28,652 nt of DNA, taken from the IMG/VR virus record IMGVR_UViG_2778261122_000004, positions 1 through 28,652 of that record. One strand, 5' to 3'. A model generated the notes under the pieces. The model was given only the letters and a program-made list of their open reading frames with translations, was not told the origin of the DNA and made no database searches. Made by a program: the position numbers and the translations under genes. The stretch comes from a virus. Taxonomy: Duplodnaviria > Heunggongvirae > Uroviricota > Caudoviricetes. Shown one piece after another: positions 3,462 to 28,652 of this stretch. Numbering within the stretch: position 1 is the first letter of the stretch; the number at the start of each line of letters is the position of its first letter.

Positions 3462-3751
3462 TGGCTAACCTACGCAAAGAAGCACGCGGCAGAGAATGCC
3501 AGGTACGTATTTACGGTGTATGCAATGGCAATCCTGAAACTACAGTTCTGGCACATTACCGGATGGCTGGAATTTGCGGAACTGGAATGAAGCCTGACGA
3601 CCTGATCGGCGCATGGGCTTGTAGCGCGTGTCACGATGAAATCGACCGACGCACCCATAATCTCGACAACAAAGACGCCAGACTTTACCACCTCGAAGGC
3701 GTGATCAGGACGCAGGCGATACTGCTGAAGGAGGGGAAGATTAAGTCATGA
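3461..3751 (+). CDS. ybcO: YbcO-like protein (DUF1364 family, Cys-rich)
   Basis: 96 aa with several Cys/His; directly upstream of rusA as in the DLP12 prophage arrangement (ninE-ybcO-rusA); translationally coupled. Confidence 0.65.
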   Translation: MANLRKEARGRECQVRIYGVCNGNPETTVLAHYRMAGICGTGMKPDDLIGAWACSACHDEIDRRTHNLDNKDARLYHLEGVIRTQAILLKEGKIKS

Positions 3752-4143
3752 AAACCTACCGAATAAAATTGCCGTGGCCTCCTTCAAACAACCGATATTG
3801 GCGACACTCAAGAGGGATCCACTACATCAGCGACTGGGGGAAGAGATACCGAAAAGAAGTAATCGAATTAATCCAGCAACAACAGCTAGACATCAAAATC
3901 ACACCTCGCATCAGAATAACCATCCACGCAGCACCTCCCGATAACCGCAAACGAGATTTGGACAATCTGCCCAAAGCCGTTTTTGACGCACTCACCAGTG
4001 CGGGCTTCTGGCTGGATGACGGTCAGATAGACGATATGCGCATCAAGCGCTATCAGGCGATTAAAGGTGGAATGCTTGTGTTGGTTGTGACTGAAACATG
4101 CGGGAGTTTGCCAATTATTACAGAGCTACTGGAGGCCGCATGA
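3748..4143 (+). CDS. rusA: RusA Holliday junction resolvase
   Basis: N-terminal ..LPWPPSNNRY.. and catalytic acidic cluster RKRDLDNLPKAVFDALTSAGFWLDDGQIDD seen in translation; ATGA overlaps on both sides. Confidence 0.9.
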   Translation: MKTYRIKLPWPPSNNRYWRHSRGIHYISDWGKRYRKEVIELIQQQQLDIKITPRIRITIHAAPPDNRKRDLDNLPKAVFDALTSAGFWLDDGQIDDMRIKRYQAIKGGMLVLVVTETCGSLPIITELLEAA

Positions 4144-19277: not shown

Positions 19278-19465
19278 CGTTTAACAGCCTGCCGGACGGG
19301 CTGTCCTACCTTCTCAATCCGGTTGACGCCGGGTTAATTCCCTATACAGCACTTAAAGATGGCTCTGTCGATTTGTATGACATTGCTCTCTTGAATGACC
19401 ATCTGGCGGTAAAAGCGGATAACCAGCGGCGCATTGAGAAATGGAGAGAGGATAATGAACGCTGA
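19223..19465 (+). CDS. predicted -1 frameshift extension of the tail assembly chaperone (GT-like)
   Basis: Heptamer A_AAT_TTT at 19223-19229 is in X_XXY_YYZ register for the chaperone frame; the -1 frame is open with no start codon from the slip site to TGA 19463-19465, overlapping the tape-measure start. Confidence 0.5.
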   Translation, partial: KFFAYTPYQHDAEPATGLTFNSLPDGLSYLLNPVDAGLIPYTALKDGSVDLYDIALLNDHLAVKADNQRRIEKWREDNER

Positions 19466-21443
19466 AACTATTAAAGATTTCCTCGTCTCGCTTGGCTTCA
19501 GTGTGGATGATGCAGGAGCGAAAAAGTTCGGTTCTGTCCTCGCCGGTACAACTGCAAATGTCATCAAAATGGGACTGGCCGTTGAAGGAGCTGCGCTGTC
19601 CGTGGTGGCCTTCACGGCTAAGATCGCCTCCGGCCTGGATAATCTTTACTGGGCGTCACAGCGCACCGGCGCGACAGTCCAGGGAATTCAGTCTATTGGC
19701 TATGCGGTTTCGCAGGTTGGCGGCAGCGTGGACGCTGCGCGCGGGTCACTGGAGAGCCTTGCCCGTTTTATCCGTAATAACCCCGGGGCGGAGGGATTTC
19801 TGAATCGTCTGGGGGTACAGACCCGTGACGCCAGCGGTAACATGCGCGACATGGCCGCTATCTTTACGGGCGTCGGCCAGAAGCTCAGCAGCATGCCGTA
19901 TTACCGGGCTAACCAGTATGCGCAGATGCTGGGCATTGACGAAAATACCCTTATGGCGATGCGCCGGGGTGTGGGGGGGTTCTCCGGGCAGTACAGCGCA
20001 ATGGCGAAAGCTATCGGCTTCAATGCTGACGAGGCGGCCAGAAGCTCCAACAAATTCATGACCTCCCTGCGCGAGTTCGGCGCGATGGCAGGCATGGCCC
20101 GTGACAAAATCGGCTCTAATCTTGCGGGTGGGCTTGCGGGTTCGCTGGACACCCTGCGCCGCCATATCCTGGACAACTTCCCTCGTATCGAGCAGACCCT
20201 GACGAAAGCCATAAAAGGCATTCTGGCGATCGGAGACATCATCGGGCGGCTGTTCTTCAGGCTAATTGAGGGAACATCCAGCCTTATCACCTGGTGGCAA
20301 TCGCTGGATAAGCAAACGCGGGAGCTCATCTCGCTGTTTGGCGCGCTGACGATTGCGCTGCGCATTCTGAACAGTACGTTCTGGATGTCGCCGATTGGTC
20401 TCATTACCGCGCTGGCGGCGGGGATTGCCCTTCTGTGGGAGGACTATCAGACCTGGAAGGAAGGCGGCGACAGCCTGATTGACTGGGGCAAGTGGAAGCC
20501 GGAGGTCGATGCCGCGCTGAAGATGGTTCGTGACCTGAAAGGGTCTGTTAATGAACTGGCGAAAGCGCTGGCGAAACTGCTCAATATTGACCCAAAATCA
20601 TGGTCCCTGAAGTGGGATTTCAGCAACTTCATCGACCAGATGGGCGAATTCAGCAAAATGCTGAACATGATCGCCGACCTGCTCAACGCTATCAAAGATG
20701 GCCGCTGGGCTGATGCCGTCATCATCGGCAAACAGATACTTAATCAGGGCAGCGAAAATCCGTCAGCGATGCCGATGGTTACAGACAGCGCTAACAGTAC
20801 TGCCGACTGGATTAAAGAGCACTGGGGATTCGATCCCCGCAGTGTGGGCCGGACGGTACGCGGCTGGTTTGGTGATGATGAGCCGGAACAATATGCACAG
20901 GCTACGAAACGAGGAGAACGGAATAACAATCCGGGAAACCTTAATTTTGCTGGTCAGGCAGGGGCTTCTCTTGAACGCCCGGGCGGGCGATTTGCCAGAT
21001 TTGAAACTGCTTTTGATGGATTACGGGCTCTTGCTCGTCAGTTAATGCTGTACGCCGGACGGGGAATAAACAGTGTGGAGAAAATTATCTCTACTTGGGC
21101 ACCTGCGTCTGATAATAACAACACAACTGCGTATATCAGGGCTGTATCGCAACGACTGGGAGTGGATCCCCGGGCTGCCCTGAATATGAGCGATCCGCAA
21201 ACCATGTCAGCATTGATGAGCAGCATTATCCAGCATGAGAATGGAAGAAATATCTATTCTCGAGAGCTGATTAATAAGGCTGCCGTGGCGGGAATTAGTG
21301 GCAAAATGACAGAGGTTAACCAGCAAAATACCTACCACATTTACGGTGGTGGAGATCCGCACGCTGTCGGTAATGAGGTTGCACGTCGGCAACAGTCTGC
21401 AAATGCTCAGGTCATGCGAAGTAATCAGGTGAGGGTGGGTTAG
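19455..21443 (+). CDS. tail tape measure protein
   Basis: 662 aa, largest gene in the tail block, right after the chaperone; ATG 19455 with GGAGAGAGG SD (ORF track begins at TTG 19434). Confidence 0.8.
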   Translation: MNAETIKDFLVSLGFSVDDAGAKKFGSVLAGTTANVIKMGLAVEGAALSVVAFTAKIASGLDNLYWASQRTGATVQGIQSIGYAVSQVGGSVDAARGSLESLARFIRNNPGAEGFLNRLGVQTRDASGNMRDMAAIFTGVGQKLSSMPYYRANQYAQMLGIDENTLMAMRRGVGGFSGQYSAMAKAIGFNADEAARSSNKFMTSLREFGAMAGMARDKIGSNLAGGLAGSLDTLRRHILDNFPRIEQTLTKAIKGILAIGDIIGRLFFRLIEGTSSLITWWQSLDKQTRELISLFGALTIALRILNSTFWMSPIGLITALAAGIALLWEDYQTWKEGGDSLIDWGKWKPEVDAALKMVRDLKGSVNELAKALAKLLNIDPKSWSLKWDFSNFIDQMGEFSKMLNMIADLLNAIKDGRWADAVIIGKQILNQGSENPSAMPMVTDSANSTADWIKEHWGFDPRSVGRTVRGWFGDDEPEQYAQATKRGERNNNPGNLNFAGQAGASLERPGGRFARFETAFDGLRALARQLMLYAGRGINSVEKIISTWAPASDNNNTTAYIRAVSQRLGVDPRAALNMSDPQTMSALMSSIIQHENGRNIYSRELINKAAVAGISGKMTEVNQQNTYHIYGGGDPHAVGNEVARRQQSANAQVMRSNQVRVG

Positions 21444-22030
21444 TGGATATTCTCTCTACACTTTTTCATCAGCAGAGCAGAAAAATAGGAATGATTGTTC
21501 CCAGTGTTGTTATTTCAGAGAAGCATACAGATATGCTTGAAATAACAGAGCATCCGGTAGAGGTTGGGGCCGCTGTCGCTGATCATGCCTATAAAAAACC
21601 GTCAGAAGTGGTGATGGAGGTTGGTTTCGCCGGTGGCGGCGCATTGCTGGATTTTGCCAGTAATCTGACGGCTACCAGCCTGCTCGGCCTGAGTCCTCAG
21701 CAGACGTATCAGGAGCTACTGGATCTGCAGGAAAGCCGTATCCCCTTCGATGTGGTAACCGGTAAACGACTGTACAGCAACATGTTGATCCGGGCGCTGG
21801 AAGTGACGACGGACAAGACAACCGAAAACGTCCTGTCCGCCGTCCTCACCCTGAGGGAGGTCCTTATCTCCCGGACGCAGCAGATTACCGTCGCGGATAA
21901 AACCAACATGAAGGAAGGGGCCAGCACGTCGGCGGTACAGAACAGCGGCAACAAAACCACCAAGCCTCCAGATACTTCACTGCTGAAAAGCATCACGGGT
22001 AACGTGGCGTCATTACTGGGGGGCGGCTAA
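21443..22030 (+). CDS. tail/baseplate assembly protein
   Basis: GTG start overlapping the tape-measure stop, GAGGGTGGG SD; 195 aa. Confidence 0.5.
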   Translation: MDILSTLFHQQSRKIGMIVPSVVISEKHTDMLEITEHPVEVGAAVADHAYKKPSEVVMEVGFAGGGALLDFASNLTATSLLGLSPQQTYQELLDLQESRIPFDVVTGKRLYSNMLIRALEVTTDKTTENVLSAVLTLREVLISRTQQITVADKTNMKEGASTSAVQNSGNKTTKPPDTSLLKSITGNVASLLGGG

Positions 22031-22332
22031 TGACAATTCAGGAAATTCCGCTGACAGCGGACAACCAGCAGTTCAGCATCGTCCTGGGTGGTGTTACCTG
22101 GCGGATTAGCATCATATGGCGCGATCTGTACTGGATTATGGACCTGCAGAACGACAGAGGGGAGCCGGTAATCTCCGGTATTCCTCTCGTCACTGGTGCT
22201 GACCTGCTGGCGCAGTACGCCTGTATGGGACTTGGTTTTAAGCTGGTGGTGGTCTGCGATGACAACACACAGGATTATCCCACGAAAACTGATCTGGGCG
22301 GCCTCAGTCATTTACTGGTATCAACGGAGTAA
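22030..22332 (+). CDS. tail/baseplate protein
   Basis: 100 aa, TAATG coupling. Confidence 0.45.
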   Translation: MTIQEIPLTADNQQFSIVLGGVTWRISIIWRDLYWIMDLQNDRGEPVISGIPLVTGADLLAQYACMGLGFKLVVVCDDNTQDYPTKTDLGGLSHLLVSTE

Positions 22333-22334
22333 GC

Positions 22335-23387
22335 ATGTCACAGAACTGGATGAGACATTTCGAGCTGCAGCTTGTGGACGGGAACGGTCAGGGAATTGAG
22401 CTAAGTGATTTCAAAGTCACCTTTACGATCGACTGGTTCAACATCAGCAGCGCGTCCCGGGTAGGGACTATCAAAATTTATAACCTCTCGGCAGATACTG
22501 TGAACCGAATCACCGGGCAGGAATTTTCGAAAGTGCGTCTGATTGCCGGTTACGACGGTATCGCGCCGGAGGTGTCAGCAAGCGACGTAGGGACCGTGCG
22601 GGAAGTTGACGCGGCGGACGTGGGCCAGAGAGATGGCCGCAACTACGGACTGATTTTCAGCGGTGAAATTCGCTACTCGGTCACAGGAAAAGACAGTCCG
22701 GTTGATTCCTACGTCCTGATTCAGGCAGCAGATACTGATCTGGCTTTTGCCACCAGTATAACCTCACAGACGCTGGCTGCCGGTTACACGGTCGCTGATG
22801 TGAACCGTGCGCTGATGAAAGACTTCGAAGCCAAAGGTGCGACCGAAGGCCTGACGCCTGAAATGCCTGCTACTGTATTCCCCCGGGGGCGGGTGCTCTT
22901 TGGCATGACGCGGCATCTAATGGATAACGTAGCCGGGCAATGTGGCGCAACATGGCAATTCGTGGATGGTCAGCGCCAGATGGTGGTGAATAATGAATAT
23001 GTTCACGAAGCGATTGTGCTCAACAGCGCTACCGGGCTTATTGGCATGCCGCAGCAGACCATCGGCAACGGCGTAAACGTCCGCGCGCTTATTAATCCGA
23101 ACATCCGGGTTAATGGGCTCATTCAACTGGATCAGGCTTCCGTATATCGCACCGCGTTGTCGAACAACGATATCGCTATGGCTGGTGGGCAGATCACCGA
23201 CCAGAACACGGACGGAAATATTACGCTAAGCGGCACCATATCGCAGCCTGCCAGCATCGCAACGGATGGCGTTTATATTGTGCGCGGGATTATGTACACT
23301 GGCGACACAAGGGGCCAGGCGTGGTACATGGATATGATGTGCGAAGCGCGCGGTGCGGCGGATCTTCGTTCGGCGTCGTCTTTATAG
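22335..23387 (+). CDS. baseplate hub protein (Mu gp44 / gpD-like)
   Basis: 350 aa, GGAG SD; position after tape measure and before spike. Confidence 0.55.
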   Translation: MSQNWMRHFELQLVDGNGQGIELSDFKVTFTIDWFNISSASRVGTIKIYNLSADTVNRITGQEFSKVRLIAGYDGIAPEVSASDVGTVREVDAADVGQRDGRNYGLIFSGEIRYSVTGKDSPVDSYVLIQAADTDLAFATSITSQTLAAGYTVADVNRALMKDFEAKGATEGLTPEMPATVFPRGRVLFGMTRHLMDNVAGQCGATWQFVDGQRQMVVNNEYVHEAIVLNSATGLIGMPQQTIGNGVNVRALINPNIRVNGLIQLDQASVYRTALSNNDIAMAGGQITDQNTDGNITLSGTISQPASIATDGVYIVRGIMYTGDTRGQAWYMDMMCEARGAADLRSASSL

Positions 23388-23401
23388 CGTGAGGTAGGAT
23401 A

Positions 23402-23755
23402 GTGAAAAAGTGGATTGTTATTGGACTCTGTTTCCTTCCGGGGTTCGCATTTGCTGCGAATCCTGGCGGTGTCACGCTTCAGTGTGGTGGCTACAAATTA
23501 GAGTTGATTCCTGATTCATTGTTCAGGATTAATGGTGAGACAGTTACCTCCCAGAAAATCAAAACGCTCGGCAACGGTAATGGAATGAAGGCGGATATGG
23601 GGCTTATGCCAGCCAAAGACGGTAACAATTACGGTTTCGAGTTCATTCGCCGTCCGGGTACCGAAACGCGTTTCTTGAATGTCCAACTACTGCAGAACAG
23701 CATGGATGCGCCGAGAATCATAGGTTCGTTTCCTTGTAAGAAGGTTGACGATTAA
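23402..23755 (+). CDS. cargo gene: small secreted (periplasmic) protein with two Cys
   Basis: GTG start with GAGGTAGGA SD; signal peptide MKKWIVIGLCFLPGFAFA|ANPGG; a cleavable signal is incompatible with a virion structural role; GC lower than flanking tail genes by eye. Confidence 0.6.
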   Translation: MKKWIVIGLCFLPGFAFAANPGGVTLQCGGYKLELIPDSLFRINGETVTSQKIKTLGNGNGMKADMGLMPAKDGNNYGFEFIRRPGTETRFLNVQLLQNSMDAPRIIGSFPCKKVDD

Positions 23756-23761
23756 TACAAT

Positions 23762-24292
23762 ATGTGCAATCAAAGGAATGAGGCTGTTGGCCTTGAAGTA
23801 GATACGATTTTGTCGTACTCGAGAGACAGGTATGAAGAAGTTAAGACAACATACAGGCGGTTAGAGGACAAAGCTAATTTTCTTCTTGCTGTGCTTGGTG
23901 TTGAGATTTCTGCATTATTAGCCGTTTTTGGGTCCTTTGAGCTGGGACAACAGTTAAAGACTAGTCTATCCGCAAGATTGTCTCTATTGTGTCTATGTTC
24001 ATGTTTTGTATGTTTGGTTTTTTGTTTTTATTATTTATGGAAATGTTGGGAACTTAGAAATATTCCCAAAATGCCTGTGCATCGAACACCTGAACAACAT
24101 GAATTTCTTCTGAGGGGTAGTAGAGATGACACAGTCAGATTTCATTTGATAATGTATGGTAGGGCTATTGATAGAATCGAGAAAATCCATAAAGAAAAAT
24201 CAGCGTTTGTAAATGAGTTGTTTCGATGGATGGTTATGTCATTTGTATTTTTTATTATTTCTGTAACGTGCATGTTAATAAGTAAGGTTTGA
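23762..24292 (+). CDS. cargo gene: 3-TM membrane protein of unknown function
   Basis: 176 aa; charged N-terminal segment then three hydrophobic helices (FLLAVLGVEISALLAVFGSF; LSLLCLCSCFVCLVFCFYYLW; FRWMVMSFVFFIISVTCMLI); strongly AT-rich by eye. Confidence 0.6.
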   Translation: MCNQRNEAVGLEVDTILSYSRDRYEEVKTTYRRLEDKANFLLAVLGVEISALLAVFGSFELGQQLKTSLSARLSLLCLCSCFVCLVFCFYYLWKCWELRNIPKMPVHRTPEQHEFLLRGSRDDTVRFHLIMYGRAIDRIEKIHKEKSAFVNELFRWMVMSFVFFIISVTCMLISKV

Positions 24293-24294
24293 AT

Positions 24295-24468
24295 ATGTCC
24301 TGTCCAGAAGACCAAAATGAACCACAACCTAAACCAAGTGAGCCTGAGGTCTCTTTCCTAGATAACTATGAGCAAGAGATTATGGCTAGAGTACCTTTCG
24401 GGGATATCGAAATTATGACGGAAAGCTATCACGACAAGCCTTCAACTTTTCCCAAGAAAGATAGTTAG
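24295..24468 (+). CDS. cargo gene: small acidic protein (57 aa)
   Basis: ATG 24295 two nt after the previous stop; Pro/Glu-rich; followed by an intrinsic terminator; below the ORF-track length cutoff, so found by hand. Confidence 0.4.
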   Translation: MSCPEDQNEPQPKPSEPEVSFLDNYEQEIMARVPFGDIEIMTESYHDKPSTFPKKDS

Positions 24469-24488
24469 TGAAGTTCTTATAAATCAAA

Positions 24489-24512
24489 CCCGCCACCAGG
24501 CGGGTTTTTTGC
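24489..24512 (+). terminator. intrinsic terminator closing the cargo cassette
   Basis: cccgcc / acca / ggcggg hairpin (24489-24504) followed by TTTTTTGCTTT. Confidence 0.75.
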
Positions 24513-24529
24513 TTTCTGGAGCTTACTAA

Positions 24530-25282
24530 ATGGCCGTATCTGACCAGACCCGCAGCGGCGACCTTGCCGAAACATTCAAATCTGAACGGGAAACAACAAA
24601 GAACCAGATCCGTGTCGCCTTGCCTGGCATTATTCAGTCATTCGATCCTGATGCGGTGACGGCAGTTGTGCAGCCTGCTATCCGTTCGGTTGAAAAGGAT
24701 AATGACGGCAACCGCATTACCCAAAATTACCCATTGCTGGTGGATGTGCCAGTGGTATTCCCGCGCGGCGGAGGATGCACGCTAACGTTCCCAGTTAAAG
24801 CCGGTGATGAATGTTTGATGATTTTTGCCGATCGTTGTATTGATTTCTGGTGGCAGAGCGGCGGGATACAGGAGCCGGTCGATGACAGAATGCATGATTT
24901 ATCGGATGCGTTTTGTATTGTCGGTCCCCAGTCGCAGGCAAGGAAGATTAGCGGTATTAATACCAGTGCCACACAGTTGCGTAGTGATGACGGCAGCACC
25001 TATTTTGAGCTTAATCCTGATGCCAGGAAAATTAAAATTGTCGCTCCGGGTGGTCTTGATGTGGTTGCCCCTCTGGCTGATTTTTCTGAGAAAGTAACCA
25101 TTCATGGCCTGTTAACCTGGATGGGTGGCATGGTGGGGTCTGTGGTTTCTGGTGTGGCTTCAAAAATCACTGGTGCTGTTGAGTTTTTGGGTAGCGTGAA
25201 GGCTAACGGCAAGCCAATTGATGATACGCACACTCATGGTGGTGTTCAGCGCGGTGGAAGCAATACCGACGGAGTAAACTGA
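24530..25282 (+). CDS. baseplate central spike protein (gpV / Mu gp45-like)
   Basis: 250 aa, GGAG SD; Gly-rich C-terminal region (..DDTHTHGGVQRGGSNTDG) typical of spike tips; position before gpW- and gpJ-like genes. Confidence 0.65.
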   Translation: MAVSDQTRSGDLAETFKSERETTKNQIRVALPGIIQSFDPDAVTAVVQPAIRSVEKDNDGNRITQNYPLLVDVPVVFPRGGGCTLTFPVKAGDECLMIFADRCIDFWWQSGGIQEPVDDRMHDLSDAFCIVGPQSQARKISGINTSATQLRSDDGSTYFELNPDARKIKIVAPGGLDVVAPLADFSEKVTIHGLLTWMGGMVGSVVSGVASKITGAVEFLGSVKANGKPIDDTHTHGGVQRGGSNTDGVN

Positions 25283-25635
25283 TGCGATACAGACGTGAAG
25301 ACGCCGATGGCGATTACACCTTTGGCAGCGGTGATGACACCTGGCTGATTAACTCACCGGAGGCCGTGGCGCAGGCGGTAAAAACGCGATTCGAATTGTG
25401 GTATGGGCAATGGTTTCTCGACACCACCGAGGGGACTCCGTGGATCCAGTCCGTACTCGGTAAGCAGAAGCCGGAAACCTACAACCTGGCGATCCGTAAG
25501 CGCATCCTCGAAACGCAGGGCGTTAAATCAATCCTCTCTTTCAATACGACGGTGGATACCACGACCCGACGTGTCATGTTTTCCGCTGAAATCGACACTC
25601 TTTATGGAATAACGACTGTTACATCGGAGGCGTAA
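25282..25635 (+). CDS. baseplate protein (gpW / Mu gp46-like)
   Basis: 117 aa, ATGA-type coupling; position. Confidence 0.55.
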   Translation: MRYRREDADGDYTFGSGDDTWLINSPEAVAQAVKTRFELWYGQWFLDTTEGTPWIQSVLGKQKPETYNLAIRKRILETQGVKSILSFNTTVDTTTRRVMFSAEIDTLYGITTVTSEA

Positions 25636-26834
25636 TGGCTCTGAACCTTGATTCTCTCGGTTTATCTGCAAAGGTAACCGCGGAGGGGATCAGTGCGCCT
25701 GATTATCAGACGATACTCAGCACCCTGATTAGCTATTTTCAGCAGATTTATGGCAGTGATGCCTACCTCGAACCGGACAGCAAAGACGGCCAGATGGTGG
25801 CTCTGATGGCGCTGGCGATTCATGATGCCAATAATATGGCGATAACTGTCTACAACTGTTTTTCACCAGCAACTGGCTATGGGGCTGCACTGACCAGTAA
25901 CGTGAAAATAAATGGTATTTCACGTAAAGGCGCGACGAACTCTACGGTTGATTTGCTTCTTACAGGAACTGCCGGAACAACCATCATTAATGGCAGCGTG
26001 AAAGACAGTAATAATGTGATATGGCGTTTGCCTGCTTCAGTGGTGGTCGGCGTGGATGGTACAGTGATGGTGACCGCAACATGTTCCGTCAGTGGTGCAG
26101 TGGCGGCGCTGGCTGGAACTATCACTGAAATTAATACGCCAACCCGTGGCTGGGTTTCGGTAACCAATCCTGCTGCGGCTACTGTGGGCACTCCGGCAGA
26201 AACTGATGCGGAGTTACGTATCCGACAGTCGCAAAGTGTTGCGTTGCCATCAATAACCCCATTTGAAGCACTGAATGGTGCTGTTTCTAATGTTACCGGT
26301 GTAACCCGCCACAAACTCTATGAAAACGATAATGGTTCGGAGGACGGTAACGGGTTACCGCCACACTCTGTTGCTGTAATTGTGGATGGCGGTGATGTGA
26401 CGGATATTGCTCAGGCTATCAGAGGGAATAAAGGCCAGGGAACAGCCACTCACGGTACAACATCCGTTACGGTTCCGGATAAATACGGCAATCCCCATGT
26501 AATCAAATTTTCGCGTTCCAGTGATGTGCCTGTTTATGCCCGGATTAAATTAAAAGTTTTTACGGGTTATACCTCACAGATAGGGCAGCAGATCCAGCAG
26601 GCTATTTCCGACTATATCAATAGTCTGATGATTGGTGATTCGGTCCTTTTAAGTCGCATTTACTCACCGGCGAATCTTGGCGTGGTGAGTGGCGGGAATG
26701 CACGCTATTACGATATTCAGGAACTGACGATTGGGAAATCCCCGGGGGCTTTGTCGTCATCAAACATTGATATCAGATACAACGAATCTGCGTCCTGTAC
26801 CCCGGAAAATATCGTTATAACGGTGGAGTCATGA
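25635..26834 (+). CDS. baseplate J-like protein (Mu gp47-like)
   Basis: 399 aa, GGAGG SD; canonical position between the W-like and I-like genes. Confidence 0.7.
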   Translation: MALNLDSLGLSAKVTAEGISAPDYQTILSTLISYFQQIYGSDAYLEPDSKDGQMVALMALAIHDANNMAITVYNCFSPATGYGAALTSNVKINGISRKGATNSTVDLLLTGTAGTTIINGSVKDSNNVIWRLPASVVVGVDGTVMVTATCSVSGAVAALAGTITEINTPTRGWVSVTNPAAATVGTPAETDAELRIRQSQSVALPSITPFEALNGAVSNVTGVTRHKLYENDNGSEDGNGLPPHSVAVIVDGGDVTDIAQAIRGNKGQGTATHGTTSVTVPDKYGNPHVIKFSRSSDVPVYARIKLKVFTGYTSQIGQQIQQAISDYINSLMIGDSVLLSRIYSPANLGVVSGGNARYYDIQELTIGKSPGALSSSNIDIRYNESASCTPENIVITVES

Positions 26835-27511: not shown

Positions 27512-28206
27512 TGGCGAAAAATGACTTTAAAGCGTTTGCAACGGATCGAAATGCCAATGTTATATCGCAGGAGGAATGGGAAGCGTTGCCCGCGCTTTTA
27601 TCTGGATTTACAGCAGGGAAAGCCTCCAGTGCGCAAGTCAATAAGGTTATTCGGCAGGCCAGCTTTATTGCTGCAGCTCTGGCCCAGTTTGTAAGTGATA
27701 AAACGCAACGGGATGTGCTTGATAATGGTGATCTGCCCGGTTTTGTTGAATTGCTGGGATCGGGGTTTGCTGTTGAATACCTGAGCCGCAAGAATCCGTT
27801 TGGCGATATCAAATCGGATGGCACGGTGAAAACGGCTCTCGAAAACCTTGGTTTGGGAGAAGCGGCTAAAAGGGATGTGGGCACTGGGGCGGGCCAAATT
27901 CCAGACATGAGCGCATGGAGTTTACCAAATGGAGGTGTAGGTATGCCTAACGGAATCAATTTCCGTTATGGTTATGTATCTTCTACTGGAGATAAAACGT
28001 TTTCTACACCATTTCCAAATCAGTGTTTTGGTATTGTATTTGGTCAAACTTACGTTGGAAACTTCTGGCTTTTTTCACCAATGTTTCGAGAAAATAGCCT
28101 GACAAAAAATGGGTTTGCTTTCATAGATCAGTCATGGTCTGGAAATACTGGGGATTACTTATTCAACGCCACCGAAAAAGTGTTTTATATAGCGATAGGT
28201 AACTAA
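27511..28206 (+). CDS. tail fibre protein (short; distal part AT-rich)
   Basis: Start ATG 27511 overlaps upstream stop; C-terminal third drops in GC by eye, suggesting an exchanged receptor-binding domain. Confidence 0.6.
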   Translation: MAKNDFKAFATDRNANVISQEEWEALPALLSGFTAGKASSAQVNKVIRQASFIAAALAQFVSDKTQRDVLDNGDLPGFVELLGSGFAVEYLSRKNPFGDIKSDGTVKTALENLGLGEAAKRDVGTGAGQIPDMSAWSLPNGGVGMPNGINFRYGYVSSTGDKTFSTPFPNQCFGIVFGQTYVGNFWLFSPMFRENSLTKNGFAFIDQSWSGNTGDYLFNATEKVFYIAIGN

Positions 28207-28208
28207 TA

Positions 28209-28652
28209 ATGTCTTATGTTTATAGCGCAAAAAATAATGCTTTTTTCTATAAAACAGAACTCAATTTATATGAAAATGCGGGATGGGATTTATCAGACAT
28301 TATTGACGTCTCTTATGATTTGTTTTTAGAGTTCACTCAGGATCGTAACGAAGAAGGATTTATGCGAGTTGCTGGAGATGATGGGTTGCCTTCATGGGGA
28401 AAACTACCACCTCCAACATATGAGGAGTTGGTTGCTACATCTGATCTACAAAAGCAGCGATTGATTAATCAGGCCAACGAATACATGAACAGTAAACAAT
28501 GGCCTGGTAAAGCGGCGATTGGTCGCCTGAAAGGTGAGGAACTGGCGCAATATAATTTGTGGCTGGATTATCTGGACGCACTGGAACTGGTCGATACTTC
28601 CGGTGCGCCAGATATTGAATGGCCTGCGCCTCCGGCAGTTCAGGCCAGATGA
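28209..28652 (+). CDS. tfa: tail fibre assembly protein (Tfa)
   Basis: 147 aa; C-terminal ..NEYMNSKQWPGKAAIGRLKGEELAQYNLWLDYLDALELVDTSGAPDIEWPAPP.. matches the conserved Tfa C-terminal motif as recalled; complete, stop at 28650-28652. Confidence 0.8.
   Translation: MSYVYSAKNNAFFYKTELNLYENAGWDLSDIIDVSYDLFLEFTQDRNEEGFMRVAGDDGLPSWGKLPPPTYEELVATSDLQKQRLINQANEYMNSKQWPGKAAIGRLKGEELAQYNLWLDYLDALELVDTSGAPDIEWPAPPAVQAR

Follow-up and report, generated by a model that had tools for sequence, protein, structure and literature searches.

In Bacillus subtilis, the gene for the three-transmembrane (TM) toxin SpoIISA is followed by a gene for SpoIISB, a hydrophilic antitoxin of roughly 56 aa, and SpoIISA itself consists of three N-terminal TM helices and a globular cytoplasmic domain of roughly 150 aa. 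Here we examine a pair of genes, g2 and g3, in a 28,652-nt stretch of DNA from an Escherichia coli prophage (IMG/VR record IMGVR_UViG_2778261122_000004; this whole stretch is referred to as the window, and all positions follow its numbering unless a locus is named). The prophage is a SEN34-like (Brunovirus-type) temperate myovirus, and the pair, together with the upstream gene g1, lies within the late tail operon between the baseplate hub and spike genes (Table 1). g2 encodes a predicted three-TM protein and g3 a short acidic peptide, but the order of segments in g2 (TM1-TM2, a cytoplasmic helix, TM3) is unlike that of SpoIISA. The second system with which the pair can be compared is Pycsar, for whose effector PycTM a membrane-disrupting role in abortive infection has been proposed (PMC11224242). 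g2 is like PycTM in its size class (about 155-180 aa), its multi-pass architecture and its N-terminal cytoplasmic helix; in addition, PycTM hidden Markov models (HMMs) match the g2 family weakly but repeatedly, and relatives of g2 are found in defence islands. However, Pycsar has an adjacent PycC cyclase gene, whereas g2 and its relatives have a peptide of 38-64 aa or a fused tail. In its setting, the locus resembles the morons of lambda and HK97 and the P2/P4 hotspots: low-GC genes that are polymorphic for presence or absence sit between late genes and end in a terminator, and the cargo at the one fixed site differs from relative to relative. Unlike in those systems, the terminator here belongs to the phage backbone, and no promoter was detected for the g2 and g3 cargo.

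A variable cargo slot between the hub and spike genes

We searched 5,426 complete E. coli genomes by megablast with the region 22300-25700 as query. The flanks were present in 353 of these genomes and the whole insert in 8 of the 353, while a further 21 genomes (O55:H7 CB9615, enterotoxigenic E. coli (ETEC) H10407 and 19 others) had an allele of g2 and g3 with about 65% DNA identity; of the 350-400 prophages that represent the lineage in E. coli, about 29 carry the pair. Annotated relatives have in common the gene order hub, a 111-118 aa protein, variable genes and spike, and at least seven other types of cargo were found at the same hub-spike site, including a 243+142 aa pair, a DUF2335 protein, a 272+127 aa pair, a 190-aa protein with a YafO toxin, DUF4282 or DUF4236 proteins, and unknown pairs. 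At the junctions of 12 loci, divergence starts right after the stop codon of g1 and the sequences reconverge at the hairpin upstream of the spike gene, so that the slot can be delimited by these two points (Table 1) and the terminator assigned to the backbone. Cargo lengths range from 510 to 1417 nt, and GC content is low (0.34-0.45) throughout the set of cargo variants. In the window, the joint GC content of g2 and g3 is 0.373 (0.32 and 0.40, respectively, at third codon positions) compared with 0.50-0.55 in the flanks, the values by gene being 0.545 for the hub, 0.469 for g1, 0.362 for g2, 0.420 for g3 and 0.505 for the spike, and 0.504 for the whole window. Given that GC is only mildly lowered in g1, the AT-rich block consists of g2 and g3 rather than of all three genes. 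The cargo is thus replaced or absent among syntenic relatives at a fixed site, and the base composition of g2 and g3 differs from that of the flanking phage genes. To judge from these comparisons, the hub-spike junction is a swappable, polymorphic slot that holds horizontally acquired, AT-rich, non-virion cargo.

These results redraw the unit that an initial annotation, made from the sequence alone, had described as one horizontally acquired, non-virion cassette of three tightly packed genes, more AT-rich than its flanks and closed by its own intrinsic terminator. The three open reading frames (ORFs) and their spacers of 6 nt (g1-g2) and 2 nt (g2-g3) are as described, and the proposed check for presence or absence in related prophages did reveal other genes at the same site. 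Horizontal acquisition and a clearly lowered GC content, however, apply to g2 and g3 and not to g1: in each of the 12 related prophages and phages in which the junction was read, a g1 homologue comes next after the hub, whatever the cargo, and g1 is fixed in the lineage. The terminator likewise exists, but it is not the cassette's own. It consists of a 9-bp GC-rich hairpin at 24486-24507 (AAACCCGCC-ACCA-GGCGGGTTT), followed by a T-run to 24516, and lies 18 nt before the spike ATG. Relatives with other cargo retain the same hairpin ahead of their spike genes; in Klebsiella phage Mulock it is kept via compensatory stem changes, and in Yersinia phage YP3 a different hairpin occupies its position. 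On this alignment evidence, the terminator is part of the conserved phage backbone rather than of the cargo, even though a terminator does lie downstream of the cargo, as in morons and hotspots. Since a strong terminator is kept inside the late operon, transcription in the lysogen presumably has to end before the spike gene. An independent promoter for the unit was not detected: consensus scans gave no excess of sites over shuffled controls, and no usable sigma-70 site upstream of g2.

Among the alternative occupants of the slot, marginal HEPN_IX matches (E 0.004-0.009) fall on the second gene of two cargo pairs (L002, 2537-2965; L004, 2624-3007), which hints that other occupants may be toxin-like too. 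We found no description of the slot between g1 and the spike gene of SEN34-like myoviruses, or of the g2 and g3 module, in PADLOC 2023 or in the literature on SEN34, PycTM, DUF5706 and prophage hotspots. The slot is thus newly delimited in a common enterobacterial prophage family, which is present in roughly 7% of complete E. coli genomes, and its occupants, mostly of unknown function, make a ready list of further candidates.

The g2 and g3 pair

The protein encoded by g2 has three hydrophobic segments in the hydropathy profile (about residues 37-62, 67-96 and 152-176), in agreement with the three TM segments first noted. In the AlphaFold2 (AF2) model (predicted local distance difference test score, pLDDT, of 80) it folds into four long helices, namely an N-terminal cytoplasmic helix that runs into TM1, then TM2, a short helix, and a long helix that runs into TM3. 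Its N-terminal helix contains an R..LEDK motif (which includes E35 and K37), and a conserved Lys before TM3 is common to g2 and its distant relatives. The peptide encoded by g3 is acidic, as already noticed (pI 4.25), and Pro-rich, and contains the motif VPFGxxxxMTESY. Relative to a Salmonella copy, the ratio of nonsynonymous to synonymous substitution rates (dN/dS) is 0.105 for g2 and 0.18 for g3, indicating purifying selection on both, compared with 1.5-1.9 in the two alternative frames of the g3 region, which supports both as genuine genes. Both genes lack a PGAP annotation in the eight complete E. coli carriers (NZ_CP082073.1, NC_011741.1 and six other RefSeq genomes); NC_011741 is the reference strain IAI1, with the cassette at 2,730,851-2,731,615. 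For the divergent allele of O55:H7 and ETEC H10407, two hypothetical proteins are annotated.

The two genes are conserved together in more diverged alleles of the same slot. O55:H7 CB9615 and ETEC H10407 encode proteins of 184 and 56 aa that are 51% identical to g2 and 36-38% identical to g3, and two IMG/VR prophages encode pairs of 182 and 59 aa (L018; g2 51% identical) and of 174 and 63 aa (L024; g2 43% identical). In some alleles of the pair, the g2 stop codon and the g3 start codon overlap. The slot-allele peptides have in common YE(Q/S)xIMxxVPFGxxxx(M/A)TES. As far as these comparisons reach, g2 and g3 are a co-conserved, horizontally mobile two-gene module that is under purifying selection, with 43-51% identity in g2 among slot alleles.

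A profile search of 1.84 billion representative proteins returned only 37 relatives of g2, all of the same architecture and all with the LEDK motif; the distant ones are about 20% identical and match over the full length. A word-indexed profile search with the distant alignment gave no further annotated relatives. By genome scan we located 10 distant g2-like loci, of which nine are intact and the one in Aliivibrio is cut by an insertion; the other hosts are Thiocapsa, Marinobacterium, an uncultured gammaproteobacterium, two Pseudomonas, three Acinetobacter and a Zixibacteria metagenome-assembled genome (MAG). In all nine intact loci, a hydrophilic, Pro-rich acidic ORF of 38-64 aa abuts or overlaps the stop codon of the g2-like gene, or the g2-like protein carries a fused tail. 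Examples of the shared motif at the distant loci are APPLVVATESYQPP (Pseudomonas), EAPEIVVVRESYSEQ, EAPELVPVMEGYTEQ and QAPDLVPVKESV. Fused C-terminal tails were also seen by protein alignment in further homologues (P0145, P0147, P0153, P0167 and P0174), with the motif in the form GVALESYRS in P0153, QIALESLDS in P0174 and QYVTEGLDS in P0147. The occurrence of such fusions argues for a physical and functional link between the products of g2 and g3, and the co-conservation and abutting arrangement of the two genes likewise speak for an interaction. The core [VILMA][TLRKM]E[SG][YLHVIF] was present in 12 of 19 peptides and tails against a background of 0.009 per 50 aa, a comparison that is biased because the motif was chosen post hoc, after the sequences had been seen. 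Run against 5,295 background sequences, an HMM built from close g3 copies only gave the Pseudomonas peptides as its best foreign matches (E 0.003 and 0.075). The fused homologue of the Zixibacteria MAG (L034, 882-1661; 259 aa) has a tail with two tandem PPxFD(V/I)V(T/Q)E copies, which indicates that the peptide motif can be duplicated.

The neighbours of the distant loci include a DarT1 with NADAR antitoxin, an Mrr_cat-nSTAND3 protein, a reverse transcriptase, a DUF4062 protein, a RES toxin and a BsuBI/PstI restriction enzyme. The module is thus associated with defence islands. No cyclase was found beside g2-like genes, either in the window or among the roughly 25 loci examined. In Marinobacterium lacunae (L026, 4764-7166), the g2-like gene and its peptide adjoin an integron-integrase-like tyrosine recombinase, and the pair is followed by imperfect inverted repeats resembling attC and by another small cassette; given that Rfam holds no attC model, the reading of this locus as an integron cassette rests on the recombinase domains and a visual reading of the repeats. 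In Acinetobacter gerneri (L030, 3747-5063 and 8114-8698), the pair is near an ORF whose N-terminus looks like that of the Zot-type P-loop proteins of filamentous phages, and near a small HigBA-like pair, both labels having been read from the sequence and not obtained by family search.

Family databases give little by way of a name. g2 matches phrog_18554 (E 5e-60), whose function is unknown; no Pfam family covers members of the g2 family, NCBIfam is silent, and PHROGs has no functional name for them, and for g3, too, Pfam, NCBIfam and PHROGs give no functional name. Other weak matches, to Pfam 8xMP, DUF3611 and DUF6796, were put down to composition and set aside. The PADLOC models for PycTM (PDLC02363-65) match g2 partially with E 2.6e-4 and its relatives with E 2e-5 to 1e-3; matches were obtained for 10/10 close members and 10/33 distant ones, the best (E 2e-5) covering the N-terminal helix and TM1-TM2. 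CBASS 2TM and CARF-TM effector models gave a few weak matches in the family. With the g2 profile, a search of Protein Data Bank (PDB) sequences returned nothing significant, the only match being SpoIISA (E 0.099). Homology of g2 and g3 to SpoIISA and SpoIISB was considered and rejected on account of this E value and the different domain order.

Possible function of the pair

Among the roles that had been guessed for the insert, those of toxin-antitoxin, abortive infection and exclusion appear to fit the evidence best. The reading that we prefer, and hold tentatively, is that g2 and g3 quite possibly form a membrane-acting module of the abortive-infection or toxin-antitoxin-like kind, with g2 held in check by g3 or by the fused tail. 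In such a module, g2 would be a small protein that crosses the inner membrane three times and has a helical stalk on the cytoplasmic side, belonging to the broad class of PycTM-type membrane-disrupting effectors, and g3 would be a short acidic, disordered peptide that binds and restrains it. In the lysogen the pair would be inert, and the conserved terminator would stop lysogenic transcripts short of the spike gene. An incoming phage would remove or titrate g3, halt its resupply, or perturb the complex otherwise; once released, g2 would oligomerise and permeabilise the inner membrane, and the infected cell would die or stall before the invader matures, with no need for a nucleotide second messenger. 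A wider proposal, which we regard as doubtful, is that the module is the first recognised member of an undescribed membrane abortive-infection family, in which a PycTM-like pore-former is held under a short acidic peptide of the P-x-L-x-V-x-T-E-S-Y type, separate or fused, that senses the phage or restrains the effector, and which moves among prophage slots, integron cassettes and defence islands of Gammaproteobacteria. At about 710 bp, the pair would be a compact candidate defence system. If the proposal is true, a membrane-disrupting effector that is uncoupled from cyclic-nucleotide signalling and controlled by a peptide would add another mode of regulation.

Several results weigh against this preferred reading. 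No annotated homologue lends support to the proposed function. The similarity to PycTM is weak, is restricted to profile positions of about 9-75 and lies below curated thresholds, and the Pfam family PF18967 is seen only faintly on the 90%-identical Salmonella copies and is absent for g2, with no NCBIfam match. Structure searches with g2 gave only generic helical-bundle matches, and tblastn of g2 against 50,697 GenBank phage records and 72,556 PLSDB plasmids gave no match. In addition, the other cargoes of the slot include no recognised defence systems in a PADLOC 2023 scan beyond the marginal HEPN_IX matches, and for this reason the slot does not qualify as a hotspot for defence systems already known. 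Because no promoter above chance was found upstream of g2, which starts 6 nt after g1, the pair may also be expressed only with the late genes. Topology poses a further difficulty: the positive-inside rule predicts a periplasmic C-terminus for g2, which would make the fused tails periplasmic as well, yet a signal peptide is missing from free g3. As a speculation, the puzzle would be resolved if TM3 inserts only on activation.

Two explanations dispense with killing of the infected cell or with an anti-phage role altogether. Superinfection exclusion without cell death, in which g2, together with g3, is located in the inner membrane and keeps the genomes of incoming phages from entering, like T4 Imm, HK97 gp15 or P22 Sie, would suit a predicted inner-membrane protein that is encoded by a prophage beside tail-tip genes, in a slot whose variability is like that of arms-race loci, and prophage membrane proteins often exclude other phages. 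We nevertheless consider it unlikely, as the module is also found away from prophages in distant genera, namely in chromosomal defence islands and in an integron-like array, which fits a self-contained, host-independent killing module better than one tuned to an entry route; moreover, an obligatory small peptide of cytoplasmic type is not a feature of known exclusion proteins. Plain addiction, in which g2 as toxin and g3 as labile antitoxin stabilise a prophage or integron cassette in the manner of SpoIISA and SpoIISB, agrees with the order and sizes of the genes (a three-TM protein, then a hydrophilic peptide of about the length of SpoIISB), with SpoIISA as the sole PDB sequence match of the family profile, with the YafO toxin pair in the same slot of other prophages and with the RES toxin beside one distant homologue. 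Yet the SpoIISA match is not significant, its domains are arranged unlike those of g2, and fused g2-g3 proteins cannot act through differential stability of two polypeptides, so that addiction alone seems rather improbable to us; toxin-antitoxin and defence roles are in any case not mutually exclusive.

If the pair instead served its own phage as an accessory lysis timer of the holin/antiholin type, expressed with the late operon, this would account for the missing promoter and for the position of g2 directly behind g1, and a small multi-TM protein with a soluble partner does recall holin-antiholin pairs. It is very unlikely all the same, since the pair must be dispensable if so few prophages of the lineage carry it, homologues occur in non-phage contexts, and g2 exceeds classical holins in size and contains long cytoplasmic helices; membership in a holin or lysis cassette was rejected for its lack of conservation in the lineage. 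There is even less to be said for g2 as an orphan Pycsar effector, that is, a true PycTM answering cCMP or cUMP from a cyclase encoded elsewhere. The PADLOC PycTM matches and the faint PF18967 signal point that way, but they have the weaknesses noted above, and the conserved partner is a small peptide and not a cyclase; we give the idea very little credence. The original notion that g1, g2 and g3 act together as one acquired three-gene cassette can draw on their tight packing, on the common downstream terminator and on the possibility of a single lysogenic transcript, but g1 accompanies every alternative cargo, its alleles reassort independently and its GC content is 0.47 against 0.36 in g2, which leaves that notion highly improbable.

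The exported protein g1

The g1 protein has a signal peptide with an AXA-type site (MKKWIVIGLCFLPGFAFA, cleaved before AN) and two Cys in its mature part, as the initial annotation had seen. The AXA signal peptide is kept in every g1 allele despite sequence differences, as are the two Cys, which lie near the ends of the mature chain. In the AF2 model, g1 forms an all-beta barrel of eight strands, with a pLDDT of 81 overall and about 90 in the barrel. Its homologues in annotated relatives are 69-96% identical, one allele being named "STY1065/STY2022 family phage-derived protein", and g1 is also found in the isolated phages vB_EcoM-689R2, Yersinia YP3, Klebsiella Mulock and Salmonella SEN34; the family comprises 389 protein clusters across Enterobacterales. 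In SEN34 (L011, about 3590-3942), the homologue SEN34_20 is annotated with 77 aa, but a frame that is open further upstream encodes the full g1 homologue with its signal peptide, indicating that the annotated start is too far downstream.

Divergence in g1 is concentrated in the N-terminal third (23402-23560, with the signal peptide and the first strands), which varies strongly between alleles, while the C-terminal two-thirds are nearly invariant. At a DNA identity of at least 95%, g1 was found in 15 genomes compared with 199 for the adjacent hub gene. Two g1 alleles of 69% identity accompany the same 243+142 aa cargo, which shows that g1 alleles and cargoes reassort independently. On these comparisons, g1 is a fixed gene of the phage lineage with diverse alleles and not cargo, and its pattern of divergence would suit a conflict-related gene better than a structural one. 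A role as a virion or baseplate structural protein was rejected, as all alleles carry an export signal and g1 is far more divergent than the hub. With its fixed position and diverse alleles, g1 poses a question separate from that of the cargo.

Pfam, NCBIfam and PHROGs give no functional name for g1, and neither a structure search in BFVD, a collection of predicted viral protein structures, nor a sequence-profile search of the PDB returned anything significant. In fold comparisons, avidins scored about 7, Cap15 7.0 and the type VI secretion system (T6SS) immunity protein BtaiB 6.6, while the lysozyme inhibitors PliC and PhiA scored 6.2-6.3 and MliC (YdhA) 5.3, none of which is decisive; because avidins, Cap15 and a T6SS immunity protein score as high as or higher than MliC and PliC, the fold alone does not discriminate. 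Compared with MliC/PliC lysozyme inhibitors and T4 Sp, g1 also differs in having no sequence match to the MliC family. It is conceivable that g1 has an inhibitory or exclusion role in the periplasm. The C-terminus of the tape-measure protein (20850-21440) resembles endolysins (PDB 7q47, E 9e-14; Gp29 of 9vvp, E 1e-20), and its Salmonella homologue carries a Pfam SLT domain, which indicates that the tail carries its own cell-wall hydrolase. Given this endolysin-like region, g1 may serve in exclusion, or it may inhibit a periplasmic enzyme such as the lytic-transglycosylase domain of the tape measure.

Layout of the locus

All tail genes listed here are on the plus strand. The genes of the tape-measure protein (19434-21443), a Dit-like protein (21443-22030) and the plug (22030-22332) precede the hub gene; the three small ORFs and the spike gene follow it, and further downstream are the genes of a sheath-initiator-like protein, baseplate J, a DUF2612 protein and the fibres.

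Table 1. Features at the hub-spike junction, in window numbering
Feature	Position	Strand	Evidence
Baseplate hub gene, left conserved flank	22335..23387	+	phrog_196 baseplate hub, E 9e-88; Pfam E217_GP41 below its cutoff
g1, exported 117-aa protein, GTG start	23402..23755	+	ORF; predicted 8-stranded beta-barrel, 2 conserved Cys
Variable cargo slot, here filled by g2 and g3	23756..24485	.	Junction comparison of 12 loci
g2, 176-aa predicted inner-membrane protein, putative effector/toxin	23762..24292	+	ORF, AF2, hydropathy, phrog_18554, dN/dS
g3, 57-aa acidic Pro-rich peptide, putative g2 partner/regulator	24295..24468	+	Co-conservation with g2, dN/dS
Intrinsic terminator, right slot boundary	24486..24516	+	Terminator scan; kept in relatives with other cargo
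Membrane-puncturing spike gene, right conserved flank	24530..25282	+	Pfam PF18352 N-terminal spike domain, E 2e-44, plus GpV apex motif

At the boundary between hub and g1, the window has a TAG stop at 23385-23387 where four relatives read CAG, and by alignment the hub thereby loses its last five codons. In the relatives, the hub stop overlaps the GTG start of g1 (TAGTG), which suggests translational coupling of the two genes there; this overlap is lost in the window. Outside the slot, a second strongly AT-rich stretch (28001-28400, GC about 0.355) is found at the boundary between a fibre gene and the next ORF (28209 to the end of the window), and is probably another mosaic or exchanged segment.

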